Shown here: piece after piece, positions 983 through 59,265 of the stretch
Layout of the letters: the number at the start of each line of letters is the position of its first letter
Numbering within the stretch: position 1 is the stretch's first letter
Assembly (NCBI GenBank): GCA_964499275.1
Contig: CAZCKO010000004.1
Location: 13,418 to 77,417, forward strand
Length of the DNA stretch: 64,000 nucleotides
DNA from: an uncultured Rhodospirillaceae bacterium
Lineage (GTDB): Bacteria; Pseudomonadota; Alphaproteobacteria; MPNO01; UBA2964
Reading direction: 5' to 3'
Made by a program: the position numbers and the translations under genes
Notes under the pieces: generated by a model
The model's input: only the letters and a program-made list of their open reading frames with translations
What the model was told of the DNA's origin: nothing
The model's database searches: none

Positions 983-1918
983 CTAATTTTTCTGAGATTT
1001 TTTTGCATTTTCTGTTTTCAGGAGATAAAGGCTACTTCCAATTATAATAGCCGATCCACAATAACTCCACCAACCAGGCACCTCCGCAAACCAAATTATT
1101 CCTAACAAGAAGGCATATACTATCCTCATGTAATCAAATGGCATTACGAAGCTTGTATCACCAAGTCCAACGCCGTGAGTAAATAGCCCTTGTCCGACAA
1201 TCCCCAAAATTCCTGTTAAAGCCAAAAGTATGACTTCGGTCCAAGTCGGGGTTTGCCAAACAAAAATAGCAGGAATGAATGCCAATAGCGTTGTAAACAA
1301 AGCAAAGTAAAACATTATGGTGACGGTTTCTTCGGTTCGGCTTAGGAGCTTAATCGTTAGAACAACACCCGTCCCGAATATAGCTCCACCGAGGGCGACA
1401 AGGAACCAGGGGTCAAAACCCTCTCCAAAAGGCTTGGTTATTAGCAAAATTCCACAAAACCCAAAAAGAGTTACGAGCCCACGCCTAAACCCAATTACCT
1501 CGTTAAGGAACAGCGCCGCAATTATAATCATGATCAATGGGCGAGAGAACTGAATTGTCACGGTGTCGGCCAATGAAATATGGATTAAAGCGTAAAAGAA
1601 ACAAAGGTTCCCCATAAATCCGACAAAGCCGCGGGCTCCATGAAGATGAAGCTTAGACGTTTTTATGGTTTTTAGTCCTAATCGCCAGACCAAAGGGCAA
1701 ATGACAATTAATCCAGCAAGAAACCGAACGAACAAAACTTCGAAGGCTGGTAGAGTTTTTCCTAAATGTTTGACGAGGGCTGCCATCACAATCAAAAGAA
1801 AGGCCCCAACTACTACGAAACAGGCTCCTCTGATATTGGGTGAGACACGTACCCAACGAGTCAGAAAGGCATTTATTAGCGGTAACCCGGAATATTCAGT
1901 TGGAGGAGTGTCAGACAT
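983..1918 (-). CDS. EamA/DMT family transporter (10-TM permease)
   Basis: 311 aa, highly hydrophobic with about 10 predicted TM segments and two EamA-like halves. Paralogous to the tandem array downstream. Confidence 0.75.
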   Translation of the reverse strand: MSDTPPTEYSGLPLINAFLTRWVRVSPNIRGACFVVVGAFLLIVMAALVKHLGKTLPAFEVLFVRFLAGLIVICPLVWRLGLKTIKTSKLHLHGARGFVGFMGNLCFFYALIHISLADTVTIQFSRPLIMIIIAALFLNEVIGFRRGLVTLFGFCGILLITKPFGEGFDPWFLVALGGAIFGTGVVLTIKLLSRTEETVTIMFYFALFTTLLAFIPAIFVWQTPTWTEVILLALTGILGIVGQGLFTHGVGLGDTSFVMPFDYMRIVYAFLLGIIWFAEVPGWWSYCGSAIIIGSSLYLLKTENAKKSQKN

Positions 1919-2079
1919 TTTATTTTAATGTGCGCGTCACCTTTAAGGTTGTCAAATTAACCTGGAGATATTGCGAGCTTTAAGTTTAGTGCATACCGTA
2001 TAATCAAAAGATAGCTGATCTACAGTACTTGCTTTCTTTAGTGTGTCTTTTTCAGCTAAATTTAATTAAAAATGATTGA

Positions 2080-2883
2080 ATGGATGGAGCCATGGTTACC
2101 AAAGGAAAAATGGAAGATAAAACCGCATTAATCACAGGTGGTGGGGGCGCAATAGGTGGAGCATCAGCAAAATTATTGGCGGCCGAAGGTGCTCAAATTT
2201 TAGTTGCTGATGAACGTCTAGAAATGGCGGAAAATGTTGTCAGGGATATTAGGGATACCGGGGGAATTGCCAATGCAATTAAAATAGATGTATCCGACCC
2301 TGAGCAAGGAAAAGCCGCGGTTGATGCCGCTTTAACCACGTTTGGCGGGTTACATGTTCTCGTCAATGTCGCGGCGGCAGTGACACCCGATGCACCGGTG
2401 GATAAATTACCTCTTGAAGATTGGAATAAAGCATTTGCTGTAAACTTGACGGGCCCATTCCTAATGTCAAAATTTGCTATCCCGGAGATCAGGAAGGCTG
2501 GTGGGGGCACAATTATTAATATGGCTTCACAGCTTGGGACTATTGGCGTACCCGAACGTTCGGCATACTGCACAACTAAAGCGGCGCTCATCCATTTGAC
2601 TACTATTCTGGCGGCAGAGGTGGCAGAGGATAATATCCGGGTTAATTCTGTTTCTCCTGGAGTTATAGAAACTCCGCGGACACGAAGGCGCTTCGATACG
2701 TCCGAAGAGTTTCATCAATCGCGTGGAAAACTTCATATGTTAGGCCGTGTTGGTCAGCCCGAAGAAATAGCTAACGCTGTCTTGTTTTTAGCATCGGAAG
2801 AATCTTCTTTTATCACTGCAACAAACCTCCTTGTTGACGGCGGTTACATCTATTTGAAACGTCAACCAGGGGATAACGGTTGA
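2080..2883 (+). CDS. SDR family NAD(P)-dependent oxidoreductase
   Basis: TGGGGAIGGASA glycine-rich NAD(P)-binding motif. Catalytic-triad context ...S...YCTTKAA... (YxxxK). 267 aa, typical SDR length. Confidence 0.85.
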   Translation: MDGAMVTKGKMEDKTALITGGGGAIGGASAKLLAAEGAQILVADERLEMAENVVRDIRDTGGIANAIKIDVSDPEQGKAAVDAALTTFGGLHVLVNVAAAVTPDAPVDKLPLEDWNKAFAVNLTGPFLMSKFAIPEIRKAGGGTIINMASQLGTIGVPERSAYCTTKAALIHLTTILAAEVAEDNIRVNSVSPGVIETPRTRRRFDTSEEFHQSRGKLHMLGRVGQPEEIANAVLFLASEESSFITATNLLVDGGYIYLKRQPGDNG

Positions 2884-4065: not shown

Positions 4066-4077
4066 ACCGAAGATACC

Positions 4078-5217
4078 TTAGTTAGAAAAGGTTACTTTAT
4101 CTCCGTCGAGATTTATGTCCCACTCTGAAATAACATTACTATCTTCTTCGATTGACCGATATTTTTCACGAGTTTTACCAAATGCCTCGGGGGCCTCCAG
4201 TTGGGACAATGCCCAAATAGCCATCGCGCGCACTAACGGAGACTTATCATTTAATTTTAAATGTACGAGTGGTGTTAAGTTGCATAGCTTACTATTTCCG
4301 ATCGCAATTAAAACGTTTCGTATAAACCTGTCACGCCCTAAACGTTTTATGGGAGATCCGGAAAATAATGATCTAAAGGCAGCATCATTCAGCTGTACAA
4401 GGTCAGCAAGGTCCGGCCAGCGAAGCTCAATCCGAGATTCTAGGTCGAGTTCCTTAGTTTTAGAGGCAAATTTATTCCATGGACAAACAGCGAGGCAATC
4501 GTCACAGCCATATATACGATTGCCGATCGATTGTCGAAATTCTTTTGGTATGTGTCCTTTATGCTCGATTGTTAGGTAGGAAATACAGCGTCTTGCATCT
4601 AGCATATATTCGGAAGGAAAAGCGCTTGTTGGACAAACGGATAGGCAACGGGAGCAAGATCCACAATGGTCCTCGATTTGGTCTTCAGGTGACAGCGATA
4701 AATTTGTATAAATTTCCCCAAGAAACATCCAGGATCCAATGGTTTTAGATACTAGGTTCGTATGTTTACCCTGCCACCCTAATCCAGCTTTCGCTCCAAG
4801 AGGTTTTTCCATAACCGGTGCAGTATCAACAAATATCTTAACCTCACCATTATGTTGTTCAGTAATATAACGAGCTAGGACCCGAAGTTTCTTTTTAACA
4901 ACGTCATGATAATCGCGACCACGTGCGTAGACGGAAATTGAACCGCACTCGGGTTTTTCTAGAGTATCTAGTGGATTACCGTCTGGTCCATAATTCAGGC
5001 CAACTACGATAACACTTTTGGCTTCCGGCCAGAGGCCTGTTGGCTCCGAACGTTGCTCTACCCGCTGGCCTAACCAACCCATATCGCCATGATATCCCTT
5101 TAAAATAAAGTCCTTAAGGTCCTTTTGCGTGTTGGTGCTGAGTGAGGCAGGTGCAAAACCAATCGCGTCGAACCCGAGTGCGAGAGCATGCTTACGTATG
5201 GCATTAGTTAAAGTCAT
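4078..5217 (-). CDS. queG: tRNA epoxyqueuosine(34) reductase QueG
   Basis: Two 4Fe-4S ferredoxin motifs (CGSCSRCLSVCP, CDDCLAVCPWN). HEAT-like C-terminal region. About 380 aa, typical of QueG. Last gene of a que operon. Confidence 0.85.
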   Translation of the reverse strand: MTLTNAIRKHALALGFDAIGFAPASLSTNTQKDLKDFILKGYHGDMGWLGQRVEQRSEPTGLWPEAKSVIVVGLNYGPDGNPLDTLEKPECGSISVYARGRDYHDVVKKKLRVLARYITEQHNGEVKIFVDTAPVMEKPLGAKAGLGWQGKHTNLVSKTIGSWMFLGEIYTNLSLSPEDQIEDHCGSCSRCLSVCPTSAFPSEYMLDARRCISYLTIEHKGHIPKEFRQSIGNRIYGCDDCLAVCPWNKFASKTKELDLESRIELRWPDLADLVQLNDAAFRSLFSGSPIKRLGRDRFIRNVLIAIGNSKLCNLTPLVHLKLNDKSPLVRAMAIWALSQLEAPEAFGKTREKYRSIEEDSNVISEWDINLDGDKVTFSN

Positions 5218-5232
5218 TAGTCGTCGGGCGGA

Positions 5233-5697
5233 TTACCCGCGACCACGATAAGATGGTACATCTTGATCAGGTATCCAGAGTCCTGATGGTGGGGTGCCAC
5301 TTTGATAAAATACATCGATTGGTATTCCACCGCGCGGGTACCAATATCCACCAATACGTAGCCACTTTGGCGAAAGTAATTCCTCCAACTTTTTTCCTAT
5401 CCCGACGGTACAATCCTCGTGAAAGGCGCCGTGGTTCCGATATGAGCCAAGGTAGAGTTTCAAGGACTTGCTTTCGATGATCCAATCAGTAGGTGCATAA
5501 TCTATGATCAAGTGAGCAAAATCGGGTTGTCCGGTAATGGGACAAAGACTCGTGAATTCTGGGCAGGTGAAACGAATGAGATAGGTCTGACCAATTTGAG
5601 GGTTACCAACTCGTTCAAGCGTGGCTTGTTCAGGAGAAGCAGGCAGTGGAGTAGCATTTCCCAGTTGGGTTAGTATTTCGTCTTTGGTCTTTGTCAT
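5233..5697 (-). CDS. queF: NADPH-dependent 7-cyano-7-deazaguanine reductase QueF (type I)
   Basis: 154 aa. Carries the QueF motif [15 protein letters not shown] and the conserved Cys in [12 protein letters not shown]. Confidence 0.85.
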
Positions 5698-5713
5698 GAA
5701 AACTATCCATCCC

Positions 5714-6853
5714 TTAGTTTATTTCCGATATTATAGGCCCGGATTTCTGTTGTTCCTGGAATATTTCCACAAAGCTATCAAATGATTTTTTCTCAATTGC
5801 ATTTCTAATCTCAGCCATCAAGGTTTGATAGTAGTGCAGGTTATGAATCGTTAAAAGCATACCCGCCAGCATTTCACCTGCCTTAACAAGGTGGTTAAGG
5901 TATGCTCTGCTATACTTTTTGCAAACTCTACAACTACACTTAGCATCTAGAGGTCTGTCATCATCCGCATGCCTCGCATTTTTAAGATTTAATGAGCCCC
6001 CGTGAACATAGGCCTGACCAGTTCTTCCTGATCTTGTTGGAATTACGCAATCAAACATATCAATCCCCCGCTCTACGGCTCCTACAATATCCCCAGGTTT
6101 TCCGACCCCCATAAGATAATGAGGACGCAATTTGGGGAGTGCCGGTACCGTGTGGTTCAAAACATCAAACATCACATCCTGTGGCTCTCCAATTGCCAGA
6201 CCGCCAATGGCATAACCGTCAAATCCTGTTTCCACTAACTGAGCCACTGATTGCCGACGAAGTTCAGGGAAAATACTACCTTGGACAATACCAAACAAAC
6301 CGTACCCTGACCTTTCTTCGTATCTGTCCTTACTCCGTGCAGCCCAGCGCATTGAAAGTTCCATGGAATCGCGTGCTTTATCTTCAGTGACCGGCCATTC
6401 GGTACACTCGTCCAGAACCATCGTAATATCTGAGCCCAAAAGATTTTGAATTTCAATAGATCTCTCCGGTGTCAGCTCTATCCTCGCTCCGTCAATATGG
6501 GATTGGAACGTTACTCCCTTTTCTTCGATTGTTTTGCGATTTCGAAGTGAGAAAATCTGATATCCACCAGAATCTGTTAAAATAGGTTGATGCCAGTTCA
6601 TGAATTTATGCAAGCCACCGAGGCTTTCAATTCTCTCAGCAGTCGGACGTAGCATAAGGTGGTAGGTATTTCCGAGAATAATCTCTGCGCCGGTAGCCGC
6701 TACGTCTTCTGGCATTATGGCTTTTACCGTTCCAGCTGTACCGACAGGCATAAACGCTGGGGTATTTACCGAGCCGTGCGCAGTTCTCAAAAGTCCCCTG
6801 CGTGCTGAGCCATCGGTATTAAAGATTTCAAATTTGATACCATTCTCTGTCAT
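5714..6853 (-). CDS. tgt: Queuine tRNA-ribosyltransferase Tgt
   Basis: The N-terminus [23 protein letters not shown], the catalytic LGGLH..., the DCV motif and the Zn site CSCRVC...H are all typical of bacterial Tgt. 379 aa. Confidence 0.9.
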
Positions 6854-7881
6854 TGAAATTCACCGCGTTCTAGAAGGCAGGCATCGCCATAGGAATAAAA
6901 TCGATATTCATTTTCAATTGCGTGATTATATGCCGACTTGATTTTCTCTAGGCCGGAAAATGCGGAAACCAGCATAAAAAGTGTAGAACGAGGTAAATGA
7001 AAATTGGTAATTAGACGGTCAACAACCTGAAATTTATAGCCGGGTGTAATAAAAATATTTGTATCGCCTTCAAAAGATGCGAGTTCGCCATTTACCTTAG
7101 AGGCCGATTCAAGAAGTCGCAAAACCGTTGTGCCACAGGCTGTGATTCTACCACCTGCTCTGCGCGCTTCAATAATTCGTTCTACTGAAGTTTCATCGAG
7201 CTTTCCCCATTCGGAATGCATTTTGTGGTCATAGATATTTTGGACTTTCACAGGTAAAAATGTACCTGCCCCAACATGGAGAGTGACCTCTATTACTTCG
7301 ATACCTGCCAATTTAATCCTTTGAAGAAGTTCTTCTGTGAAATGAAGGCCGGCTGTCGGCGCTGCGACAGCTCCAGGATTTTTGGCATAAACCGTTTGAT
7401 AATTTTGATTATCAAACTTTCTTGTACCTTTCTTTCGATCAATATAGGGAGGCAAAGGCATTAAACCGTTTTTGGTTAATCCTTCAAAAAACGTTTGACC
7501 TGAAAAGTTAACCACAATTTCTCCTGCTTCCCTTTTTTCTATCACGGTTGCCAAAAAATTTGATGAGAATTTAATTATATCTCCTTCATGAAGTTTCCGC
7601 GCGGGTTTGGCAAAGGCACACCAGCTTTCATCGTTATTTATCTTATGCAATGTAATTTCTATGGACGTGTTATTACGAAGGCCGCGCAGGCGAGCGGGAA
7701 TGACTTTGGTGTTATTTAATACAAGGACGTCACCCGGGGACAATAATTTTGGCAAGTCACGGATTATCAAATCATCAAAATCTCTCGCTATGTGGAGTAG
7801 TCGGGCAGCGTCTCTCGGCGAGGAAGGTTCTTGGGCGATTAGCTCCCTGGGCAATTTAAAATCAAAGCAATCAGTTTTCAT
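6850..7881 (-). CDS. queA: S-adenosylmethionine:tRNA ribosyltransferase-isomerase QueA
   Basis: N-terminus [14 protein letters not shown] typical of QueA. 343 aa. 4-bp overlap with tgt start. Confidence 0.9.
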
Positions 7882-7989
7882 GTTTGAAACAATACATTTA
7901 AAGACCAGACTTTTTTAGCAGGATTATGTGTAGGTGTGCTATCCACCATAAAAAGTGATATACAAAGTTTTTTCAAATACAATTGATGA

Positions 7990-8889
7990 ATGCCTAAAAT
8001 TAAATCTAGATTGGCGGTATTATTTGCGCCGCTACCTGATAGTGCCAAGGGCATTGGCCTTATGCTTGGCTCTGCTGCCTCAATTTCCGGGGCAAATGGG
8101 ACCGTACAATATCTTTCACAGGGTATCCATGTTTTTGAAATAGCGTTTTTTCGGCAACTTCTTGGCCTAATTCTAATGTCTGCGCTTTTCTTGCGGGGTG
8201 GATTACGGCCATTGTTTACGAAGAAAATTTGGTTACACATTTTACGCTCGATTTTGAATGTCGTGGCGATGCTAGCTTTTTTTTATGGTTTAAGCCTTGA
8301 ACCCTTGGCGAAGGTTGTGTCTTTAGGGCTTACCGCGCCGCTATTTGCGACATTAGGTGCTGTCATTTTTCTGCGTGAGAAAATGACAGCACATCGTTGG
8401 GTTGCACTAATTATCGGAGCCATTGGCGCTTTAATAATTCTTAGACCGGGTTTGCAGGTTGTCTCCCTTGGAGCTCTTATGGTCCTAATGTCAAATATGC
8501 TGTGGGCGATAGCTTTAGTGGTAATAAAAATTCTGACCCGTACTGATACATCGGTTACTGTGGCACTCTATGCCAGCCTGCTTCAGGCCCCAATTGCATT
8601 TATATTTGCTATATTTGTTTGGCAATGGCCGTCCATCGAACAGATTGGCTGGATGGTAATGGTGGCAATTTTAGGAACAATTTCACAATTAGCTCTAACT
8701 GAGTCCTTTCGCCATGCAGACGCCACACTGGTTCTGCCCGCAGATTTTACTAAGGTAATTTGGGCAAGTTTAATTGGATATTTTTTCTTTAACCAAGTTC
8801 CGGAAATCTGGGTAGGGCTGGGTGCTATCGTAATTTGCTCAGCCGTTTTTTATAATACCTATTCTGGTCCCCATAGTTCTTCTCCATAA
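7990..8889 (+). CDS. EamA/DMT family transporter
   Basis: Hydrophobic 10-TM protein with EamA repeat signatures (..IILRPG.., C-terminal ..PEIWVGLGAIVI..). Divergent from queA. The true start may be an internal Met. Confidence 0.7.
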   Translation: MPKIKSRLAVLFAPLPDSAKGIGLMLGSAASISGANGTVQYLSQGIHVFEIAFFRQLLGLILMSALFLRGGLRPLFTKKIWLHILRSILNVVAMLAFFYGLSLEPLAKVVSLGLTAPLFATLGAVIFLREKMTAHRWVALIIGAIGALIILRPGLQVVSLGALMVLMSNMLWAIALVVIKILTRTDTSVTVALYASLLQAPIAFIFAIFVWQWPSIEQIGWMVMVAILGTISQLALTESFRHADATLVLPADFTKVIWASLIGYFFFNQVPEIWVGLGAIVICSAVFYNTYSGPHSSSP

Positions 8890-9593
8890 CGATGTAGATT
8901 GTGGCCATTTTGGCGCAGCCATGATTTACCTTCATCGACCGTCGATGAAAGTGTTCGAACAATCTGCCAAAACTTTTTTGAATGGTTCATCTCTGCTAGG
9001 TGGGTCACTTCATGGCTAACAATGTAATCTAGAACATACTCAGGTGCCATGATTAGGCGCCAAGAAAAATTTAGAGCTCCTGAAGCAGAACAGCTACCCC
9101 AACGGCTCTTCGTATCTCGAATTGTAAGTCGACTATATGTTTTATCTAGTAGAGCGGATTTTTTTTTGGCCAACATCGTTATTTCACACCCGGCTTCGCG
9201 TTTATACCAGGTCGTTATAACCCGACTTAAAACATTTTTTGGAGCCCTCACTAGCAGGTTTTCGTCTTGGCGGTGCACGTCAGCTCCTTTTTCGCTGACA
9301 TGAATTATTTTGAGAGGCTTGTCAAATAGTGGTACCATTGCACCGTCCCTAAATGGAATTGGCTCGGAAAATTTACGGAGATGTTTTGCAACCCAGGTTG
9401 TTTTTTGTCTAAGAAACGAAATCCCTTTTTGTTCCTCTATGAACCTTGGCAAAACTAGTTCCGCCTGCCCTGTTTCGGGTAATATTCTAATTTTTAGCCG
9501 CCGAGCTCTGTTGCTACGCCTTATGCTAATTTTTGCGGTCTTTCCGTTTGGAAGGTCTAATGTTGTGCTATTTAGAATTAAAATTTTTACCAT
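8859..9593 (-). CDS. YgjP-like (DUF45/M48-like) zinc metallohydrolase
   Basis: HExxH-containing motif VSHEVTHLAEMNHSKKFW characteristic of the YgjP/DUF45 family. 244 aa. Confidence 0.7.
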   Translation of the reverse strand: MVKILILNSTTLDLPNGKTAKISIRRSNRARRLKIRILPETGQAELVLPRFIEEQKGISFLRQKTTWVAKHLRKFSEPIPFRDGAMVPLFDKPLKIIHVSEKGADVHRQDENLLVRAPKNVLSRVITTWYKREAGCEITMLAKKKSALLDKTYSRLTIRDTKSRWGSCSASGALNFSWRLIMAPEYVLDYIVSHEVTHLAEMNHSKKFWQIVRTLSSTVDEGKSWLRQNGHNLHRYGEELWGPE

Positions 9594-9620
9594 TTAAGAA
9601 TAAGTCCTGACCGGTGACGT

Positions 9621-10109
9621 ATGATGCAAGTTGATGATGTATTTGAAATGCCCGGCGCCTATGTCCTTTTGATAGAATTAGATGCAATATATTCAGACGA
9701 TATCGGTGCTCTCGGCAATGTCAAATTATCTGCTGGCTATTATCTTTATTTTGGTAGTGCTCGAGGTAAGGGTGGCATGGCCGGGAGAGTTAGACGGCAT
9801 CTCAAAATTAATAAGAAGCGATATTGGCACGTTGACTGGCTAACATTCGTTGGTTCCGTAAAAAAAGTAATGCTGGTTCCTGGAGGTGTGGAATGCCAGC
9901 TGCGGAAAAAGGCGGCGGCTTTGTCAGGGCTGACCGTCCCTATATTAGGTTTTGGCAGTAGTGATTGTAACCAGTGTCCGGCGCATCTTTTAGGTGTAAA
10001 GGGAAATGGATTAACCACTCTGGAGGAGCTAAGACTAACTGTGTCTGGTCATAGTTATTCGGCCACCTCTTTTTCCTCTACTACATCAGCGCAGCCCTCC
10101 ACCGTTTGA
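9621..10109 (+). CDS. DUF123 (GIY-YIG nuclease superfamily-like) domain protein
   Basis: PGAYVLLIEL...AGYYLYFGSARGKGGMAGRVRRHLKINKKRYWHVDWL matches the conserved DUF123 core. The 3' end overlaps the convergent gene by 55 nt. Confidence 0.55.
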   Translation: MMQVDDVFEMPGAYVLLIELDAIYSDDIGALGNVKLSAGYYLYFGSARGKGGMAGRVRRHLKINKKRYWHVDWLTFVGSVKKVMLVPGGVECQLRKKAAALSGLTVPILGFGSSDCNQCPAHLLGVKGNGLTTLEELRLTVSGHSYSATSFSSTTSAQPSTV

Positions 10110-10951
10110 CGCATGGTTCTATTTTTATCCACTGTTTCACGAATTTCTGATGCAAAAGGTGACTTTGTCATCAACTTATACAATTCGGCTGATGCTTGAT
10201 GAAAACCGGTCGGCATTAAGACGGATCCCAAGGTTTTAGCGATTTCTTCCATCTCACCAATGTAACGATTGGAAACTGCGGGAAGGGCGGATGTCATTGC
10301 TTCCATGCGCTTATAAATAGCGCCTTGGCTAAAAATTAGCTCTTTATGTAATTCATCGGATACATCTAACTTCTCGGCTGCCATCAAAATTGCGGCATGG
10401 AGTGCGCTAGTACCCTTTGTTATACCCGCGTAACACATTTTGATCGCAGAAGCGGTGCCAGCTTCACTCCCGCATTGTTTGATTTCGACTCCCTTGCCGT
10501 CGAAAATATTCATACTCTCCGCTCCACTACCACTAACAAAGAAACGGGTTGGTACTGAAGCCCCTGGCGGGTTTCCTACAATTCCACCGTCGATATATGC
10601 GGCACCAGCGTTATCTATAACGGCACCAATTTTTGCAGCTGTCTCGGGTGATACCGCATTACAATCAAAATAAGGCGGCGTGTAGCCAGTTTCGGACATT
10701 TCAGAAGCAACCCGCTCAGCCTGAACCAGCGCATCACCCGGGGGTAAAATTGAAAATATAATATCTGCTTCAGCTAAAACCAATTTAACCGATCCACAAT
10801 CTCGGAAGCCTGCCGCATTCGCCCGCTCGAAAGTATTCTCGCTACGTCCTTCAAGTGCCGTGATTATATTAAAACCGTTCTCTTTAAAGGCTTTCCCCGT
10901 TGCAGCACCCATTTCCCCAGGGCTTAAAATAGCAATAGTTTTGATGGTCAT
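10055..10951 (-). CDS. NAD(P)-dependent oxidoreductase (6-phosphogluconate/3-hydroxyisobutyrate dehydrogenase-like NAD-binding fold)
   Basis: N-terminal Rossmann motif IAILSPGEMGAATGKAF. About 300 aa. Confidence 0.6.
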   Translation of the reverse strand: MTIKTIAILSPGEMGAATGKAFKENGFNIITALEGRSENTFERANAAGFRDCGSVKLVLAEADIIFSILPPGDALVQAERVASEMSETGYTPPYFDCNAVSPETAAKIGAVIDNAGAAYIDGGIVGNPPGASVPTRFFVSGSGAESMNIFDGKGVEIKQCGSEAGTASAIKMCYAGITKGTSALHAAILMAAEKLDVSDELHKELIFSQGAIYKRMEAMTSALPAVSNRYIGEMEEIAKTLGSVLMPTGFHQASAELYKLMTKSPFASEIRETVDKNRTMRQTVEGCADVVEEKEVAE

Positions 10952-14653: not shown

Positions 14654-15534
14654 CATCAATCATATTTTCAAATTCGGTTGTCCGCGGAGCTTTATGGATG
14701 GTGTTCGCCACAGGGTTCCAGGCAACGGCGAGTGGTTTTGTCCGGAGACTTTCCAACGACTTTAGTGTCTTCGAGCTTGTATTTTTTTTCAGCAGTATTA
14801 GTGCGGTTTTACTTATTCCTTTTGCTATGACATTACCAAAGGGATCCTTGAGAGGGATAAAGAAGCGGTCAGGGCTTTATCTTATTCGGGGATTATTATC
14901 ATTTTGCGGCATGCTTGCATCTTTTTATGCGTATTCGGTGATGGATATTGCTAACGTGCAGGCACTATTATTTACGGTACCGCTATTCACTATCCTTCTT
15001 GCTGGAATTTTATTGGGAGAATTTGTTGGTCTACGAGGCTGGTTATCATGCGCTATTGGATTTTTGGGAGCCATAATAATAGTACGCCCCGGCGTTATTC
15101 CTGTTAACCCTGGTGCACTTGCGGCACTCGTATCCGCTTTTGCATTTGCAGCAGCTAATATAGCTATTAAGAAGCTAGGTACAACCGAGAGTCCGATCGT
15201 CATTACCATGGTATCTAACATGATAGTGGTACCCTTGTCCGCTATACCAGCCGCTTTAAATTGGGTTACCCCTACCTGGGGTCAGGTACCATGGATACTT
15301 ACGATGGGTGTTCTATTCATGGGAGCGATGGTTTGCTTGTCTTTTTCAATTAGAGAGGCGGATGCCCGAATTGTACAAACGATCAACTTTCTTCGGATGC
15401 CATGGTCGGTCTTGGTAGGGTATTTGATGTTCACTGAATTACCAGACATTTGGACCTGGTTAGGAGCAATTATTATCTTTATCGGTGCATATGACGTTCT
15501 GCGCCGTGAAGCCAATACAAAAAGCGAAGAATGA
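14650..15534 (+). CDS. EamA/DMT transporter, array member 2
   Basis: ATGA overlap with member 1. Motifs ADARIVQTINFLRMP and FTELPDIWTWLGAIIIF. Confidence 0.85.
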   Translation: MTSIIFSNSVVRGALWMVFATGFQATASGFVRRLSNDFSVFELVFFFSSISAVLLIPFAMTLPKGSLRGIKKRSGLYLIRGLLSFCGMLASFYAYSVMDIANVQALLFTVPLFTILLAGILLGEFVGLRGWLSCAIGFLGAIIIVRPGVIPVNPGALAALVSAFAFAAANIAIKKLGTTESPIVITMVSNMIVVPLSAIPAALNWVTPTWGQVPWILTMGVLFMGAMVCLSFSIREADARIVQTINFLRMPWSVLVGYLMFTELPDIWTWLGAIIIFIGAYDVLRREANTKSEE

Positions 15535-16421
15535 CTGATACCTCTGAGAACAATTCAGCTCGTCGTAAGGCAGCCATCTGGGGGATTACCTGGATGATTA
15601 TTGCTGCTGTCGGATATTCGTTAAATGCAGGTATCGTCAAACAGCTTTCATCAGACCTAAATACCCTAGAAATTGTCTTTTGGCGCTCACTTGTAGCAGT
15701 TGTCATCTTACTTCCTTTCTTTTATCGACATGTTTCTTCGGCTGGCCGAGAATCATTAAAAAATTGGCACTTGTTTTTATTGAGAGGTCTTTTTACCTAC
15801 CTCGGCATGGCGGCTACGTACTACGCCCTTGCGAATATTCCCATTGCAGAGGTTTATGCCCTGCAGTTTACCTTGCCCCTATTCATGATAATCGTCGCGG
15901 CAATATTTCTAGGCGAAAAAGCCGGTATCGGCAGTTTTTTTGCTTGTCTCGTTGGTTTAATTGGAACATTGATCATTCTCAGGCCCGGGTTTGAAACTGT
16001 TGGGTTGGCGACACTGGTCGCACTATCTTCTGCAGTATTTTACAGTATCACCAATGTATTTATTAAGATCCTGACGCGCACAGAAACCACCACGACAATT
16101 ACTATTTATGGTAATATTATCATGTTAGTTTTAGCCCTGCTTCCGTTGCTTTTTTCCTGGCGATGGCCACCTGTTCAGACAATTGTTTGGATAATAGTGT
16201 TAGGTGTATTCACCACTGGGGGTCAATGGGCTTTAACAAAGGCAATCGCAACCGCAGATGCCCGGGTCGTTTGGCCGTTCGATTTTCTACGTATGCCTTT
16301 CACTGCAGCTATTGGTTACGTGATGTTTGGGCAACTTCCCGGAATTTGGACCTGGGTTGGTGCGGTGGTCATCTTTGCTGCTGCTTATTACGTTATTCAT
16401 AAGGAGGCGACCTCTAAGTGA
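15531..16421 (+). CDS. EamA/DMT transporter, array member 3
   Basis: ATGA overlap with member 2. Motifs ADARVVWPFDFLRMP and FGQLPGIWTWVGAVVIF. Confidence 0.85.
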   Translation: MTDTSENNSARRKAAIWGITWMIIAAVGYSLNAGIVKQLSSDLNTLEIVFWRSLVAVVILLPFFYRHVSSAGRESLKNWHLFLLRGLFTYLGMAATYYALANIPIAEVYALQFTLPLFMIIVAAIFLGEKAGIGSFFACLVGLIGTLIILRPGFETVGLATLVALSSAVFYSITNVFIKILTRTETTTTITIYGNIIMLVLALLPLLFSWRWPPVQTIVWIIVLGVFTTGGQWALTKAIATADARVVWPFDFLRMPFTAAIGYVMFGQLPGIWTWVGAVVIFAAAYYVIHKEATSK

Positions 16422-17281
16422 CAGATGCCGTATACACTAATTCAATAAGGGGAGCCATCTGGATGTTGGCGGCGTCTCTTTGTTATGTTTCATCAGCGAC
16501 GCTTACGCGTTATTTGGCTGGCAGCTATCCGACATTCGAGTTGACCTTTTTGCGTTGTGTTTTTGGTGTGATGGTTCTTACGCCCTTAATTCTTCGGGGT
16601 GGAATAAATCAACTTAAGACCAAGGCATTTCCGCTCCATTGTTTAAGGACTTTAATTACCTATGTTGCGATCCTTCTGTGGTTTTACGCCACAGAGCATG
16701 TGCCTGTCGGTGATTTTTTTGCTATACAGTTTGTTTCTCCGCTTTTTACTATTGCTGTAGCGGCCCTCTTATTGCGTGAAAAAGTAGGAATCAAAAGCTG
16801 GTTAGCTGCCTTGGTCGGTTTCTTAGGGGTGATGGTTATAATTCGTCCGGGTTATATACCGGTGTCTCTAGGTATCACCGCGGCATTAGGAACGGCGGGA
16901 GCATACGCATTTGTGAATACTTGTATTAAAATTTTGTCGCGATACGACTCCCCTACCGTGATGACTTTTTATGTCAACGTCCTCATTTTGCCTTTGTCGG
17001 CTATTCCCGCTTATCTGACTTGGAAAACGCCGGAGGGAGAGGACTGGCCTATTCTGATTGGAGTGGCGCTTTTTGCTACCATGGCACAGTTTTGCGTGGC
17101 GTCGAGTATTTCACTCGCTGATGCACGTGTGGTCCAACCAATGAATTTTCTAAGAATGCCGATCGCAGCTGCAATGGGATTCATGGTGTTTGGTGAATTT
17201 CCAGATCTTTGGACTTGGTTTGGCGCTCTGATAATTTTTGGCGCAGCATGGTATGCGGTGCAGCAGGCGAAGAAAGTATGA
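16418..17281 (+). CDS. EamA/DMT transporter, array member 4 (GTG start)
   Basis: GTGA overlap with member 3. Motifs ADARVVQPMNFLRMP and FGEFPDLWTWFGALIIF. Confidence 0.85.
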   Translation: MTDAVYTNSIRGAIWMLAASLCYVSSATLTRYLAGSYPTFELTFLRCVFGVMVLTPLILRGGINQLKTKAFPLHCLRTLITYVAILLWFYATEHVPVGDFFAIQFVSPLFTIAVAALLLREKVGIKSWLAALVGFLGVMVIIRPGYIPVSLGITAALGTAGAYAFVNTCIKILSRYDSPTVMTFYVNVLILPLSAIPAYLTWKTPEGEDWPILIGVALFATMAQFCVASSISLADARVVQPMNFLRMPIAAAMGFMVFGEFPDLWTWFGALIIFGAAWYAVQQAKKV

Positions 17282-18156
17282 AGCCGATTTCAAGCCCTAT
17301 CCTTGGTTCCTTGTGGATGTTATCGAGTTGTATTTTTTACGCATGTTCTGCCTCTTTAGTACGAGAAGTGGGAGATACATATACACCATATCAAATGACC
17401 ATGATCCGTTCTTTCGTGGCCGTGGCGGTATTAGCGCCGGTTTATCTCAGGGAAGGCGGCAATCTCGTATTTATCCCGCAACGATTTTTCATGCACTTTT
17501 TGACGGGCGTCTTTACCTATCTAGGTATTGTATTTTGGTTTTTCGCGACTGCATCGATGCCCATAGCCGATTTCTTTGCCCTACAGTTTGTCACACCTCT
17601 TTTGACTATGGCTTTCGCAATCATCTTTTTACGCGAGCAATCCGATTTGAGAAGTTGGATAGCAGCTTTAATCGGTTTTTGTGGCGTACTGATAATACTT
17701 CGGCCCGGTATCATAGAAGTATCGTTTGCGGCAATAGCTGCACTCATCAGTGCATTATTTTATGCCAGTGACAATACAGTTATTAAATCTTTATCGCGTA
17801 ATGTCTCAGCAACGATGATTGTATATTATGCGCATCTTCTGATGATCCCCATTTCTTTGCCAATGGCAGCTCTTACATGGAAACAGCCCACTTTATATGA
17901 TTTTGGTGTTATCGTAGCAATTTGTTTATGTCTAACTATGGCATATCTCTCTGTTACAAAAGCGATCGCTTTGACTGTCGCACGAGTTGTTCAACCGGTA
18001 AATTTTATGAGGATGCCCATCGCTGCAGTATTTGGGTGGGTGTTGTTCAGTGAGTTTCCAGATCTCTGGACCTGGATCGGCGCCGTGGTGATATTTTGCG
18101 CAACGACATACGCAGTAAGGCGTGGTACTAGCTCGGAACGAACAGGAGACACATGA
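17278..18156 (+). CDS. EamA/DMT transporter, array member 5
   Basis: ATGA overlap with member 4; this start (MKPISS...) is preferred over the upstream in-frame M at 17209. Motifs ARVVQPVNFMRMP and FSEFPDLWTWIGAVVIF. Closest paralog of member 6. Confidence 0.85.
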   Translation: MKPISSPILGSLWMLSSCIFYACSASLVREVGDTYTPYQMTMIRSFVAVAVLAPVYLREGGNLVFIPQRFFMHFLTGVFTYLGIVFWFFATASMPIADFFALQFVTPLLTMAFAIIFLREQSDLRSWIAALIGFCGVLIILRPGIIEVSFAAIAALISALFYASDNTVIKSLSRNVSATMIVYYAHLLMIPISLPMAALTWKQPTLYDFGVIVAICLCLTMAYLSVTKAIALTVARVVQPVNFMRMPIAAVFGWVLFSEFPDLWTWIGAVVIFCATTYAVRRGTSSERTGDT

Positions 18157-19025
18157 AAAATCTTCCAATAGCAGTCCAGGGGGCGTTTTGGATGTCTGTC
18201 AGTGCGGTGTGCTATGTTGGCTCGGCCGTTTTAATCCGATTTATCGGGGAAACCTATTCTCCTTTTCTCCTGACATTTTTTCGATCTGTCATAGCAGTGA
18301 TCATACTCGCCCCAATGATCTTTAAGATTCGAGCGTCAACCCTTTGGCCCGAAAGGCCAGTCTCAGTTTTGATGACCGGTATTTTTTCTTATATTGGTAT
18401 ATTTTTATGGTTTTATGCAGCGGGACGGATGCCTGTTGCCGAGTTTTTTGCCCTTCAGTTTGCCACACCACTATTTACAATTGCCTTTGCGATCATATTT
18501 TTGCGAGAAAGGTCGGACCTTCCGAGTTGGCTCGCTACTCTTGTTGGATTTACTGGTGTTCTGATTGTCCTTCGACCAGGAATTATAGAAGTTTCCGTTG
18601 CAGCCGTTGCAGCGGTCTCCTGTGCGGCTAGTTACGCTAGTGTTAATACCTTGATTAAATCTCTTTCAAAGGCGGTTCCAACTACGGTCATTGTATTTTA
18701 TGCCAATTTCTTACTAGTACCCATTTCTCTTCCAATGGCGATTAAAGATTGGCAACTACCACATATGGTTGACTGGCCGACTATTATTGGTGCTGCAGTT
18801 TTATCGACGATTGGGTATGTAACGGTGTCAAAAGGAATAGCAATGGCGGCAGCCCGAGTGGTCCAACCTGTCAATTTTTTACGAATGCCTGTTGGTGCCG
18901 CGTTTGGCTGGGTTTTGTTTAATGAGTTTCCAGATATCTGGACGTGGATTGGTGCAATTGTCATATTTTGTGCAACGACGTACACCGTACACCGCGGTAC
19001 GGGAAACAATAAGGGAAGAAGATGA
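18153..19025 (+). CDS. EamA/DMT transporter, array member 6
   Basis: ATGA overlap with member 5. Motifs ARVVQPVNFLRMP and FNEFPDIWTWIGAIVIF. Confidence 0.85.
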   Translation: MKNLPIAVQGAFWMSVSAVCYVGSAVLIRFIGETYSPFLLTFFRSVIAVIILAPMIFKIRASTLWPERPVSVLMTGIFSYIGIFLWFYAAGRMPVAEFFALQFATPLFTIAFAIIFLRERSDLPSWLATLVGFTGVLIVLRPGIIEVSVAAVAAVSCAASYASVNTLIKSLSKAVPTTVIVFYANFLLVPISLPMAIKDWQLPHMVDWPTIIGAAVLSTIGYVTVSKGIAMAAARVVQPVNFLRMPVGAAFGWVLFNEFPDIWTWIGAIVIFCATTYTVHRGTGNNKGRR

Positions 19026-19723
19026 TCACCCTTCATTCTTGGCCGACGCCTAATGCCCACAAAGTTTCCATTATGCTGGAAGAATGTGGTTTGAATTACG
19101 AGGTTAAAGAAGTTGATATCACCGCTGGGGACCAGTTCGATTCGGAATTCCTGGAGCTTAGCCCAAATAATCGAATACCTGCCTTGGTTGACCAAGACGG
19201 ACCGGGTGGCAAATCTATTTCAGTTTTCGAATCGGGGGCAATCTTACTTTACCTGGCCGAAAAAACTGGGAAGTTTTTACCGGTCTCGGGTAAGTCCCGC
19301 TATGAAGTGATCCAGTGGCTGATGTTTCAAATGGCTAACGTCGGGCCTATTTGTGGTCAAGCCCATCATTTTCGAGATGCCGCTCTAGAACGCGTCCCAT
19401 ACGCTATAACTCGTTTTACTCTGGAAACGGCTCGCCTTTATAATGTCATGGATAGACAACTTTTCAGAACCCGTTTCCTTGCGGGTAAGGACTACACAAT
19501 AGCGGATATGGCCTGCTGGCCGTGGGTGCGGGTTCATCGCTTCCATGGCCAGTCATGGAATGACTTTCCTCATGTTAAACGTTGGTTTGATGAAATTACT
19601 TTGCGTCCCGCAGTGCAGCTAGGTATGGAACTTCTTGCTGACAAGCGGCGGAAACCCGAGGAGGTTTTGAATGAAAGGTCCCGTGATATTCTTTTCGGCC
19701 GCAGGCAAATGGAACGGCGCTAG
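19022..19723 (+). CDS. Glutathione S-transferase, Nu-class (YfcG/YghU-like)
   Basis: The N-terminal thioredoxin-like GST domain LHSWPTPNAHKV...IPALVD...VFESGAILLYLAEK and its C-terminal helical domain are typical of this class. The ATGA overlap with the last EamA gene indicates co-translation. Confidence 0.8.
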   Translation: MITLHSWPTPNAHKVSIMLEECGLNYEVKEVDITAGDQFDSEFLELSPNNRIPALVDQDGPGGKSISVFESGAILLYLAEKTGKFLPVSGKSRYEVIQWLMFQMANVGPICGQAHHFRDAALERVPYAITRFTLETARLYNVMDRQLFRTRFLAGKDYTIADMACWPWVRVHRFHGQSWNDFPHVKRWFDEITLRPAVQLGMELLADKRRKPEEVLNERSRDILFGRRQMERR

Positions 19724-20358: not shown

Positions 20359-20408
20359 CAAGCTTTTAGTGCTTATTTATATAATGTTTGAATAAGTTTC
20401 CCGTCTCA

Positions 20409-21305
20409 TTATTCATCCGTGGCTTCTTTGGCTTCCTTTCGAACTGAAAAATAAGTGCTGGCGAAGATAACCAATGCACCTAGAAGGACCCATGGTGAGA
20501 ATGTTTCGCCCCAGAGAATATAGGCAATCAAAGCGATAAAGGGGAGACGAAGAAAATCGATAGGAAAACAGACAGATGTATCAATTAAGACTAACGCCTT
20601 GCTGAGACAAAAATGGGTTATAATCCCAGACGTCCCAAGGAGTAGAAGCCACGGTACATGATGCCATTGTGGCATTACCCAGAAATATACTGCGGGTCCC
20701 AAAAGAATGAGGCACTGAATCAAGTTCATGGTAAAGACCATTGTTCCAGCACTTTCAGTTTGGGACAGGACCTTGACCATTACATTTTGTGCCGAAAACA
20801 ATATTGCCCCCAAGATAACCATAAGGGTTGGTATGCTGATAGGTACAAAACCGGGACGAACAATTATTAATACACCTAAAAAACTTACCGTCATTCCAAT
20901 CCAGCGATAGAATTTAACCCGCTCGCCTATAGTCATTGCGGCGAAAGCAGCGGTTAGGGCAGGAATGGTATATTCGATTGAGGTAACGACAGCGAGTGGC
21001 ACAGATATGACGGCAAAAAAAACGCAGTATTGTGCACTCACATGGGTAACATTCCTGAGGATCTGAAAGGGTAACCGCTTAGTTAAAAGATTACTCAAAC
21101 CATACTTGGGAACCATGATTACAGAAATGGCAATTAAACCGATGATCGCTCTTAGAAAGAGTATTTCGGGGATGGTTATATCTGGCTTGAGAGCCCGGAC
21201 AGCAATGACAATTCCGGCAAGGCCGGTAACAGCGATTGACATCCAGGCCACACCACGAAGTGTTTCCGTGCGGGTTGCATTACCAGTAGTGTTTTGCTCC
21301 ATCAC
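20409..21305 (-). CDS. EamA/DMT family transporter
   Basis: 298 aa 10-TM protein with EamA repeat (..IIVRPG.., ..DFLRLPFIALIAYILWGE..). Confidence 0.75.
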   Translation of the reverse strand: MMEQNTTGNATRTETLRGVAWMSIAVTGLAGIVIAVRALKPDITIPEILFLRAIIGLIAISVIMVPKYGLSNLLTKRLPFQILRNVTHVSAQYCVFFAVISVPLAVVTSIEYTIPALTAAFAAMTIGERVKFYRWIGMTVSFLGVLIIVRPGFVPISIPTLMVILGAILFSAQNVMVKVLSQTESAGTMVFTMNLIQCLILLGPAVYFWVMPQWHHVPWLLLLGTSGIITHFCLSKALVLIDTSVCFPIDFLRLPFIALIAYILWGETFSPWVLLGALVIFASTYFSVRKEAKEATDE

Positions 21306-21401
21306 GAAAAGTACTCGCCAATCAATTAATGAAACTCGGATTTACAGAATATACTACGGAGCTTAACTTAGTGCGATAAACATAATTGGGGAGTTTCTTT
21401 A

Positions 21402-22895
21402 ATGGATGGCTCGCAGGCTGCAGGTCTTATTCACAAGGTCACATTCGGTGACCTTAGGGAATATATTGAGGAAGTTGAAAAGCTTGGAGAGTTGAGACGT
21501 GTTGAAGGCGCTACCTGGGAAGAGGATATCGGCCTTGCTGCGGAACTGCTTCTTCACAGTGAAACAGCACCCTGTGCACTCTTTGATGAAATACCGGGTT
21601 ATCCCAAGGGCCATCGGGTCTTCACTAATTTTTTTGGCGGACGCCGCCAAAATATTACCCTTGGTTTTCCTCCAAACCTTTCAAAATTTGAATTAAGCGT
21701 AGCCTTCAATAAGGCTTATCAATCGATTGTGCAAAATCCAATCCCTTATGAGACCGTAGAAACTGGGCCGGTAATGGAAAACATAATGGAAGGGGACGAT
21801 GTAGACGTGTTATCTTTCCCGACTCCCCTTTGGCATGAAGGGGACGGTGGCAGATATATTGGCACTGGATCCTTTAATGTTACCCGTGACCCTGAAGAAG
21901 ATTGGGTGAATGTTGGGACCTATCGCGTAATGGTTCATGATAAAAAAACCGTAGGATTCTATATTTCGCCTGGCAAGCATGGTCGGATTCACCGTCAAAA
22001 ATACATGTCAAAAAACCAACCCATGCCAGTTTGTGTTGTTGTTGGAATAGATCCGCTGAGTTTTCTTATGTCCTCTTCAGAAATTCCCTACGGAGTATGT
22101 GAATTTGACATAATGGGGGCGTATCGAGGCCGCCCTATTGAATGTGTAATTGGCAAGCACACTGGCCTGCCCTTCCCTGCAAATGCTGAGATTGTTCTCG
22201 AGGGGTTTTGCTATCCTGACAATCTTCACTCCGAGGGGCCTTTTGGAGAATGGACGGGTTACTATGGAAACCCCGAACATAATGGTCCGACTTTAGATAT
22301 TAAGGCAATTTATCATCGCAATAATCCAATAATGCTCGGTTGTCCGCCTCAGCGACCACCAGAAGAACAGTCCCGCTATCGTGCTGTAGTGAGGTCTGCT
22401 TTGTTGAAGGAACAAATTGAAGCAGTCGGCGTTCCAGATGTGCAGGTGGCGTGGTGCCATGAATGTGGTGGTGGGCGTATGTTTACAGCGGTATCTATTA
22501 AGCAACGGTATCCTGGCCATGCAACGCAGGCAGGTCAGATTGCCTCACAGTGCAGATTGGGGGCGTACGCTGGGAAGTTTGTAGTTGTGGTTGATGAAGA
22601 CATCGATGCATCCAATTTAGAGGATGTGATGTGGGCGCTTTGCTTCAGAGCAGATCCGGCCACTGATATTGATATAATACAAAGGGGTTGGTCGACCGGG
22701 CTGGATCCTTCTATTCACCCTGATCGTAAGGCGATTGGCGACACCACTAATAGCCGCGCTGTAATAAATGCTTGCAAACCCTTTCATTGGAAAGATAGAT
22801 ATCCGAAGGTCAATATGCCTGACCCCGAGACCTACGAGCGTGCCCAGCAAAGGTGGGGCTGGCTTCTAAACAGTAATGCACCCCCAGAAAAATAG
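21402..22895 (+). CDS. UbiD-family (prFMN-dependent) decarboxylase, paralog 1
   Basis: 497 aa with the UbiD-fold N-terminus ...WEEDIGLAAELL... and central ..GPFGEWTGYY... Clear paralog of 30673..32151. Confidence 0.8.
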   Translation: MDGSQAAGLIHKVTFGDLREYIEEVEKLGELRRVEGATWEEDIGLAAELLLHSETAPCALFDEIPGYPKGHRVFTNFFGGRRQNITLGFPPNLSKFELSVAFNKAYQSIVQNPIPYETVETGPVMENIMEGDDVDVLSFPTPLWHEGDGGRYIGTGSFNVTRDPEEDWVNVGTYRVMVHDKKTVGFYISPGKHGRIHRQKYMSKNQPMPVCVVVGIDPLSFLMSSSEIPYGVCEFDIMGAYRGRPIECVIGKHTGLPFPANAEIVLEGFCYPDNLHSEGPFGEWTGYYGNPEHNGPTLDIKAIYHRNNPIMLGCPPQRPPEEQSRYRAVVRSALLKEQIEAVGVPDVQVAWCHECGGGRMFTAVSIKQRYPGHATQAGQIASQCRLGAYAGKFVVVVDEDIDASNLEDVMWALCFRADPATDIDIIQRGWSTGLDPSIHPDRKAIGDTTNSRAVINACKPFHWKDRYPKVNMPDPETYERAQQRWGWLLNSNAPPEK

Positions 22896-22916
22896 ATACG
22901 ATGGGGAGTTAGGCTT

Positions 22917-23936
22917 TTATTCATTACCAGCGTGCTTGGCTTCGTGCCTCGTCATAACGTAGGTTGAGCCAGCGATGATAGCTGCGCCAACCCATACCCA
23001 GAAATCGGTTGTTTGATTAAATACGAGGTATGCTAAGCCAGCCGTGATGGGTAAACGTAGGTACTCGATTGGCTCAATGATTGTTGCTTCGGTATGTACA
23101 AAAGCCCTTACAAGACAATAGGGTGCTGCGGTTCCCGAGACGGCTAGGAGCAGTAGTGCAGGGATATCGGTGATTTGGGGTGTTACCCACCTGAACCAGG
23201 TAAGTGGCAACCCGAAGTCCGGGTAAGAATTAGCCAAAAACCATCCCAAATACATCGAAATAGCAGCAAAAACTGTCAATGTGAATTGGTAATAGAAAGT
23301 TGTTGTGGTTGGATGGTCTGTTTTTCCAAGAGACCGCGTATATATTGCAACCCCTGCATATGATAGGGCCGAACCAAGCACAAGAAACGCTGCTGGGCTC
23401 ATCGGCACCGCACCTGGGCGAAGAATAACGACGACGCCCGCAAAGCCGACCAGTGTACACCCTAAGCGTATAATACCAGGTCGTTCCCGCAAAAAGATAA
23501 CCGCCAAGACGACCACCATAAGTGGCACGGTGAAATGCAATGCGACGGCCTTTGCTATTGGAAGAAAGGCAAGGCCGGCAAACCATAACCACATGCCCGC
23601 AAAATTTGCCAAGTTACGTTGTATATGAAAGCCAAGACGGTTGGTTTGCCAAAATTGATTTCCCTGCCAGGAAATTATGCAGAGTAGTATCATAAGGCCA
23701 ATCAGGTTCCTAAAAAACACCAACTCAATAGCGGGAATATGATCTAATAAACGAACTGCAATGGGAACAAAGGAATGCGCTATTGCGGCAGCCAGTCCCC
23801 ATCCAGCGCCAATCAGGACTTGATTACCGGTTCTTCCGTGAGAGTTAACAGGGCCCATTAATAAAAACCATTGAAGTCTATTATCAAAAAAATGACCATC
23901 GCTATAATTATGAGACCACAGAGGCGAATGAGACAC
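22917..23936 (-). CDS. EamA/DMT family transporter
   Basis: 339 aa polytopic protein with EamA repeat (..VILRPG..). 8-nt gap to the upstream membrane-protein gene. Confidence 0.7.
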   Translation of the reverse strand: MSHSPLWSHNYSDGHFFDNRLQWFLLMGPVNSHGRTGNQVLIGAGWGLAAAIAHSFVPIAVRLLDHIPAIELVFFRNLIGLMILLCIISWQGNQFWQTNRLGFHIQRNLANFAGMWLWFAGLAFLPIAKAVALHFTVPLMVVVLAVIFLRERPGIIRLGCTLVGFAGVVVILRPGAVPMSPAAFLVLGSALSYAGVAIYTRSLGKTDHPTTTTFYYQFTLTVFAAISMYLGWFLANSYPDFGLPLTWFRWVTPQITDIPALLLLAVSGTAAPYCLVRAFVHTEATIIEPIEYLRLPITAGLAYLVFNQTTDFWVWVGAAIIAGSTYVMTRHEAKHAGNE

Positions 23937-59262: not shown

Positions 59263-59265
59263 ATT

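Follow-up and report, generated by a model that had tools for sequence, protein, structure and literature searches.

The window analyzed in this study is a 64,000-nucleotide stretch of contig CAZCKO010000004.1 (positions 13,418 to 77,417 of the forward strand; assembly GCA_964499275.1) from an uncultured Rhodospirillaceae bacterium of the UBA2964 group, and it carries ten genes for EamA-type permeases of the drug/metabolite transporter (DMT) superfamily, here termed E1 to E10, within bases 983–23936. As the fairly probable reading, we propose that these genes belong to a conserved block of the core chromosome, in which six of them and a glutathione transferase (GST) gene would form a translationally coupled operon, and that their products would act as independent DMT carriers of diverged range, with efflux as the likeliest mode of transport. 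All ten open reading frames (ORFs) named in the initial annotation, which had been made from the sequence without database searches, matched the EamA family (PF00892) in two stretches each, with E values of 7e-21 to 6e-35 and scores of 75–121 bits against the Pfam cut-off of 28.2 bits, and the proteins of ~290 aa can be aligned with one another from end to end. The ten EamA-type genes announced for ~23 kb are thus all full-length double-EamA genes, and their coding sequences take up 39% of bases 983–23936. The gene map held as well, apart from the starts of E7 and E10. Judging from the protein alignment and the lengths of the orthologs, the most likely start of E7 is ATG 17278, in overlap with the stop codon of E6, instead of the ORF limit at 17209, and that of E10 is ATG 23858, yielding 313 aa, instead of 23936; the E10 orthologs of relatives were called at 313–316 aa.

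The local density of EamA genes amounts to 436 per Mb. In a study on SAR11, 11–17 EamA genes per Mb were deemed considerable for a streamlined microbe (PMC11796062), and 0.25–0.39 genes are expected per 23 kb at that rate. When the array of E3–E8 is counted as one event, the probability of at least five independent loci in 23 kb is 7e-6 to 5e-5, a figure calculated with the rate of SAR11, which may not be that of the host lineage. Of the 211 stop-to-stop ORFs in the window with a length of 70 aa or more, a hidden Markov model built from the ten proteins retrieved only these same ten, leaving zero EamA genes in 24–64 kb, and the contigs of relatives that extend past the left edge of the window bore none in the 6–10 kb beyond E1. 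Altogether, the density of EamA genes here is far above chance and non-random. The initial annotation had called it unusual for a single transporter family, with a uniform density across the genome as the counter-case, and the latter disagrees with the absence of EamA genes from the flanking ~50 kb. We find it quite improbable that the genes came to lie together by chance in a genome extremely rich in EamA, with no regional meaning beyond the tandem array. PF00892 is among the features tied to marine bloom-forming bacteria (PMC12487129), and SAR11 itself shows the rate given above. However, EamA genes are absent from the 40 kb right of the cluster and from the 6–10 kb left of it, a rate as high as 50 per Mb still gives a probability of 0.006 for at least five independent loci in 23 kb, and the positions of all ten genes are conserved across the lineage as described below.

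Conservation of the locus among relatives

Relatives were found by an alignment scan for orthologs of E5, taking one genome per species. The scan gave 19 species-representative metagenome-assembled genomes (MAGs; L007–L025), all from marine samples and labeled as Rhodospirillaceae, Rhodospirillales, or Alphaproteobacteria bacterium, with E5 orthologs at 57–98% identity. The nearest of them, L007 (XB_MAG160, JAYZFG01), shares 91.8% nucleotide identity with the window over 20.9 kb and is on that ground a sister species. One relative is represented by a complete chromosome of 4.15 Mb (OX638326.1), and because of this size the genome is not of the streamlined SAR11/SAR116 type. The label of a SAR11/SAR116-like oligotroph in the initial annotation has to be given up on the basis of that chromosome and the affiliations of the relatives.

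Between the que genes and the MFS_1-like gene, the order was syntenic in the 19 genomes wherever the contig was long enough, down to ~55% identity, and a metagenome scan with E1 found that the E1-SDR-HtrA-queG order is conserved too. Each of the ten EamA genes has an ortholog at the same position in relatives, down to 53–64% identity. The orthologs of E1 (53–94%) were always found beside SDR-HtrA-queG, those of E2 (54–96%) and E9 (56–97%) kept their positions, and those of E10 shared 62–91% identity; the most conserved gene of the locus is the UbiD-family gene at 21402–22895 (80–98% identity in relatives). In the comparison with L007, the ratio of nonsynonymous to synonymous substitution rates (dN/dS) was 0.035–0.157 for E2–E10 (0.052 for E2, 0.070 for E3, 0.10 for E9, and 0.157 for E10; E1 lies outside the compared locus), the same range as that of the neighboring tgt (0.089) and UbiD-family gene (0.042). 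The nine EamA genes E2–E10 are kept under purifying selection. Altogether, the cluster belongs to the conserved core genome in a group of marine alphaproteobacteria; it is old, with same-position orthologs of all ten genes, and no oddity of a single genome. In one relative (L018; CALSLP010000002.1), E2, E8, and a 439-aa protein encoded next to E10 each appear broken into several ORFs, for which assembly indel errors are more likely than true pseudogenes.

The same data bear on the possibility of an assembly artefact or of a recent island acquisition, for which we found no support and which we regard as practically negligible in probability. The pairwise amino-acid identities among the ten paralogs are 23–54%, DNA repeats between the EamA genes reach only 63–72% identity over a conserved C-terminal motif with no long or near-identical DNA, and the same gene order recurs in independent assemblies (TARA scaffolds, NCBI MAGs, JGI contigs, and a chromosome-level MAG). 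The artefact that the initial annotation had allowed for is thus at odds with both the divergence of the paralogs and the agreement among the assemblies. As for an island, the GC content is flat (0.42–0.475 throughout), no tRNA gene was found, Rfam at gathering thresholds gave no element in the window, no integrase or transposase was present among the ORFs scanned against Pfam, and the synteny extends down to ~55% identity. None of the marks of a genomic island was seen, be it an unusual base composition, a mobility gene, a bordering tRNA gene, or a patchy distribution among relatives.

History of the EamA genes and similar clusters elsewhere

Six of the EamA genes stand in a row on the forward strand, namely E3 (13760–14653, with a conserved TTG start), E4 (14650–15534), E5 (15531–16421), E6 (16418–17281), E7 (17278–18156), and E8 (18153–19025), and are followed on the same strand by the gene for a Nu-class (YfcG/YghU-like) GST with GST_N and GST_C domains (19022–19723). 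All six junctions (E3/E4, E4/E5, E5/E6, E6/E7, E7/E8, and E8/GST) are start-stop overlaps, with GTGA between E5 and E6 and ATGA at the other five. As every junction between these co-directional genes is of this kind, the arrangement implies a single translationally coupled unit of seven genes.

The phylogenetic relationship among the EamA proteins was inferred by the neighbor-joining (NJ) method with Kimura distances and 200 bootstrap replicates, with outgroups mainly from the E5-centered search. The orthogroups of E3–E8 formed one clade with an NJ bootstrap of 87%, and this clade also holds E3-type singletons of other lineages. Within it, E6–E8 and E7–E8 each grouped together with a support of 100%, and every array orthogroup was likewise recovered at 100% except that of E8 (71–77%). 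E7 and E8 are the most similar and most recently diverged pair of paralogs (54% identity), and of the duplications only theirs seems to date from within the sampled lineage. The identities among E5 orthologs lie between ~50% and 98%, clearly more than the 41% seen with paralogs, and each of the other paralogs likewise has orthologs that resemble it far more closely than any paralog does. With the closest paralogs at 54% and the orthologs at 55–98%, the picture is not that of a recent amplification, and E3–E8, being adjacent, co-directional, and of one clade, form a tandem array.

The number of array genes differs among the relatives. Six were found in L007–L011, L013, L017, and L018, and five in L014 and L015 (both without E3) and in L022 (E3, E4, E5, E6, and one E8-like gene). 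The arrays of L012 and L019 have four genes, a number limited by the contig end, and those of L020, L021, and L023–L025 have three (E4, E5, and one E7/E8-like gene). E3 is thus missing from the array in L014, L015, L020, L021, and L023–L025, and E3-type singletons of 56–61% identity occur in a different genomic context in L026–L038. An E4 ortholog is present in every array including those of three genes. Because the array size varies between three and six among otherwise syntenic relatives, we read its history as a long-term birth-and-death process of tandem duplication rather than a recent burst. The twelve closest complete loci all have the Nu-class GST gene after the array, as do L019, L022, and L025. 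The claim of a locus-specific amplification therefore stands for the six-gene array, with its overlapping genes and single clade, although that amplification is old, and fails for the ten genes as a whole.

The remaining four genes are dispersed. E1 (983–1918, reverse strand; 311 aa; PF00892 E value of 2.4e-26) diverges from an SDR gene (2080–2883), E2 (7990–8889, forward strand; 299 aa; 4e-28) diverges from queA across an intergenic region of 108 bp, E9 (20409–21305, reverse strand; 7e-21) diverges from the UbiD-family gene, and E10 (22917–23858, reverse strand; 1e-28) is the last of three co-directional transporter genes. E1 grouped with tandem-pair genes of Niveispirillum and Rhodocista (NJ bootstrap of 90%, and 68% in a larger tree), and E2 grouped with tandem EamA genes of other high-GC metagenome contigs (L099/L101; 97%) and not with the array; the two belong to other deep subfamilies. 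E9 and E10 were sisters in one tree (71%) and were not recovered as such in the other. Since E1 and E2 group outside the array, the ten genes are not the product of one local burst, which the initial annotation had put forward as an outcome of a paralog tree. The deep nodes of these distance-based trees call for caution.

In ~6.4 kb, a second lineage of marine alphaproteobacteria (GC content of 51–64%) bears a cluster of six EamA genes, all of full length, with a tandem of four on one strand and the remaining two on the opposite one (L087/L089, 9138–15437; also L093, L097, and L088, from the E1 scan), and the cluster of the window is consequently not unique. The counterpart in L124 spans 9148–10933. 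The second cluster adjoins an SDR gene, an RND pump with a membrane-fusion protein (MFP), and UDG, with a GST gene further on. As the same locus in the chromosome OZ244893.1 contains only two EamA genes, this cluster expands and contracts as well. It is similar to the cluster of the window in the tandem arrangement, the variable copy number (2–6), and the presence of GST and efflux-type pumps nearby, but differs in the RND-MFP/SDR/UDG context, in the identity of 30–37% to the window genes, and in comprising several subfamilies instead of one clade. Orthology of the second cluster to the subfamilies of the window was considered and is not claimed, with a tree support of 23–62% and inconsistent BLAST best hits. 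Several marine contigs with an EamA-GST-GST-EamA arrangement were also encountered (L103, L104, L106, L107, and L110; e.g., 9923–14278 of L103), another case in which EamA genes adjoin GST genes. Judging from these contigs and the L087-type locus with its two to six genes, EamA clusters of variable size recur in these bacteria. The window itself has an RND efflux pump (AcrB-like, 1078 aa) with a membrane-fusion protein at 56026–60690 on the reverse strand, and the same pair flanks the cluster of the other lineage in L087 and L124.

Our literature search found no description of tandem EamA arrays or EamA-GST operons, and nothing on UBA2964. The genes of the 10-transmembrane (TM) Drug/Metabolite Exporter (DME) family (YddG, EamA/YdeD, and RhtA; TC 2.A.7.3) are scattered singletons in Escherichia coli, unlike the six-gene operon of the window. 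The ten proteins share with this family the two PF00892 repeats, the length of ~290 aa, and the ten-helix fold, but score below all named cut-offs, and the identity to YddG is ~19–21% in the structural alignment. In SAR11, the same family is expanded in marine alphaproteobacteria, with ten EamA copies in the core genome of one genomospecies; the available text gives a genome-wide density and describes no cluster (PMC11796062). The window, in contrast, has ten genes in 23 kb, six of them in one operon, and belongs to a lineage whose genome is ~4 Mb. Repeated duplication of an efflux-type gene is also known for the pump gene pecM in the pecS-pecM system of Vibrio, where, according to the accessible part of the report, the duplicates travel with a MarR-type regulator, while the window locus is without a regulator gene (PMC6391409). 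We regard the locus as a well-documented example of a known process, i.e., the tandem expansion of a transporter family rich in paralogs, and not as a new mechanism or class of system. Few transporters of marine heterotrophs are as numerous, or as little understood, as the EamA/DMT carriers, and the copy number of three to six across syntenic species offers a compact natural experiment on the growth and diversification of secondary-transporter repertoires. The array also provides six related carriers that could conveniently be screened for substrates.

Fold and putative function of the EamA carriers

E6 was modeled with AlphaFold2 (AF2) as a protein of ten long helices (pLDDT of 94.4; pTM of 0.90), and the other nine proteins align with E6 over the full length. 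Foldseek with this model retrieved 38 PDB chains at E values of 1e-3 or below, all of which belong to the DMT superfamily (YddG, SLC35B1, TPT, Vrg4, CST, PfCRT, and LicB), with a TMq of 0.82 to TPT (5Y78) and an E value of 6e-8 to YddG (5I20). In sequence searches against PDB, one single protein had no match and a profile of the ten paralogs had only weak ones, to LicB (6e-4) and YddG (1e-3). A crude hydropathy count of TM segments was discarded as unreliable, giving 6–9 segments for proteins with a modeled fold of ten helices, and an exact look-up of one window protein returned no record.

We propose that repeated tandem duplication of one EamA gene built the seven-gene operon of E3–E8 and the Nu-class GST, and that the operon has been kept under purifying selection with its copy number drifting between three and six among species. 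E1, E2, E9, and E10 would be older, separately diverged paralogs whose places among the housekeeping genes have stayed the same as far back as can be traced. Each EamA protein would act alone as a ten-helix DMT carrier, and the six co-expressed paralogs may have diverged in substrate range so as to extend the variety of small organic metabolites that can cross the inner membrane, most likely by efflux or facilitated release in analogy with YddG, EamA, and RhtA. The context is in line with efflux, as a DHA2-type major facilitator superfamily (MFS) gene is adjacent and an RND pump stands beside the analogous cluster of the other lineage. The coupled, glutathione (GSH)-dependent GST hints at thiol, disulfide, or electrophile-related substrates. 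This protein scored 216 bits against NF010579, below the cut-off of 332, and is nearest to the Nu-class YfcG/YghU disulfide-bond oxidoreductases.

Several observations weigh against this reading. The co-transcription of E3–E8 is inferred from the gene overlaps alone, and the counts of a promoter and terminator scan stayed at the chance level of shuffled sequences. The deep nodes of the NJ trees, with their E5-centered outgroups, were poorly supported (23–66%). The GST gene was undetected after the array in L020, L021, and L024 (the contig of L023 ends too near the array to tell), which makes the link to glutathione chemistry a weak one. Neither the substrates nor the direction of transport can be read from the sequences, and the ten proteins fell far below the cut-offs of the named NCBIfam subfamilies, namely TIGR00950 (2A78/RhtA-type; 30–79 bits against 230), YddG (19–27 against 300), RarD (19 against 130), and phn_DUF6 (30 against 288). 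Only four strict positions are fixed differently per array orthogroup, so few that a divergence of the substrate pockets is not demonstrated.

Among the alternatives, we give a modest but appreciable chance to an uptake battery, in which EamA importers would widen the range of dissolved organic matter taken up, perhaps supplying aromatic or sulfonated acids to the UbiD, TauD, and dioxygenase paralogs. DMT importers are known, e.g., Sam of Rickettsia, RibN, and LicB, and the choline importer LicB is among both the structural and the profile matches of the window proteins. The window also holds three UbiD-family and three TauD-family genes, PhyH and 2OG-Fe(II) oxygenases, and a TTT uptake system, and an HcaT-like (3-phenylpropionate) MFS gene lies near E10. 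On the other hand, no EamA gene shares an operon with a catabolic enzyme, the sole coupled enzyme being GST, neither a substrate-binding protein nor a regulator is present, and most of the characterized bacterial 10-TM DME members are exporters.

We assign only a small probability to the hypothesis that the array encodes the subunits of one hetero-oligomeric multi-permease complex made in fixed ratios. Six consecutive start-stop overlaps are typical of complexes with a fixed stoichiometry, the order of the array is conserved, and TPT and nucleotide-sugar transporters, families found among the matches of E6, are dimers in solved structures. However, a copy number of three to six among syntenic relatives is hard to reconcile with an obligate complex, the E3-type genes stand as singletons in L026–L038, and the single-chain model of E6 is a complete ten-helix carrier (pTM as above). 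We are similarly doubtful of the broader proposal that the six coupled EamA proteins and the Nu-class GST constitute one functional system, a hetero-oligomeric or relay multi-permease for glutathione-linked or disulfide metabolites. If this were true, the repeated clustering of different EamA subfamilies in two marine lineages, with GST nearby each time, would reflect selection for co-localization and not only the history of duplication.

Neighboring genes

The genes interleaved with the EamA genes in the initial annotation, i.e., the que operon, a UbiD decarboxylase, an MFS pump, and a polytopic protein of no assigned family, were all recovered in the Pfam and NCBIfam scans. The housekeeping genes queG-queF-tgt-queA for the queuosine modification of tRNA occupy 4078–7881 on the reverse strand and are syntenic in relatives. 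The DHA2/EmrB-like, efflux-type MFS gene at 11009–12457 (reverse strand) matched PF07690, as well as TIGR00711 with an E value of 4e-29, below the cut-off of the latter. The UbiD-family decarboxylase gene between E9 and E10 (21402–22895, forward strand) matched PF01977/PF20696 and TIGR00148 (264 bits against a cut-off of 245). The HcaT-like MFS gene at 25359–26552 (reverse strand) matched PF12832 (E value of 1e-62) and NF008346 (253 bits against a cut-off of 259), is syntenic in relatives, and forms the right-hand boundary of the conserved block rich in transporters. Other genes among the EamA loci encode SDR, an HtrA-like protease, YgjP, DUF123, an NAD-binding dehydrogenase, a luciferase-like oxidoreductase of the MsnO8 family, and a TPR protein. 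In total, 13 of the 26 genes in positions 1–26.5 kb are those of secondary transporters (ten EamA/DMT, two MFS, and one IT-like).

The IT-like transporter is the polytopic 439-aa protein encoded at 23944–25263 on the reverse strand, the unknown 12-TM protein of the initial annotation, for which neither Pfam nor NCBIfam gave a match. Its 122 homologs, the only ones found, are all unnamed and from marine alphaproteobacterial MAGs. The AF2 model (pLDDT of 90.5) matched TRAP SiaQM, VcINDY, Pho90, NaS1, and AbgT (YdaH/MtrF) in Foldseek with a probability of 1.00 and E values of 1e-7 to 1e-3, but with a TMq of only 0.4–0.58 and root-mean-square deviations of 7–12 Å. We predict from the model that this protein is a divergent elevator-type carrier of the IT superfamily, with a fold as in DASS, TRAP-DctM, and AbgT, and it may represent an undescribed transporter family. 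With the HcaT-like MFS gene upstream and E10 downstream, its gene completes a series of three co-oriented genes for secondary transporters of different kinds.

The EamA locus is devoid of a regulator gene. Several intergenic regions contain blocks conserved across distant relatives, which are probably promoters or operators: AATGTGCGCG, TTGTCAAA, and CCTACCGT in this order between E1 and the SDR gene (1919–2079), TTTAGCAGG and then GTGATA between queA and E2 (7882–7989), and GGATTTACAGA between E9 and the UbiD-family gene (21306–21401). An operator shared by the separate EamA loci was considered and rejected, as each region has its own blocks and no common motif was visible by eye. A riboswitch or structured leader before E3 was rejected as well; Rfam was empty for the window as mentioned above, and the upstream region of E3 is poorly conserved beyond the ribosome-binding site and the TTG start, with a length of 79–193 nt among relatives. 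A DUF2336 gene lies between the LLM gene and E3 in L011, L013, L018, and L022 (partial in L010) and before E4 in L014 and L015; it has been lost in the window (13570–13759), L007, L009, L016, and L017, where an AT-rich spacer of 79–193 nt is left.

The window is rich in paralogs in general. The three UbiD-family decarboxylase genes in the 64 kb are located at 21402–22895 (forward strand), 30673–32235 (reverse strand), and 46788–48191 (reverse strand). The genes for three TauD/TfdA-family dioxygenases, PhyH, and a 2OG-Fe(II) oxygenase occupy 32355–33335, 38285–39241, 39254–40096, 40984–41841, and 41870–42748, and the TTT transporter beside these dioxygenases comprises TctA (35509–37020) and TctC (37173–38177).

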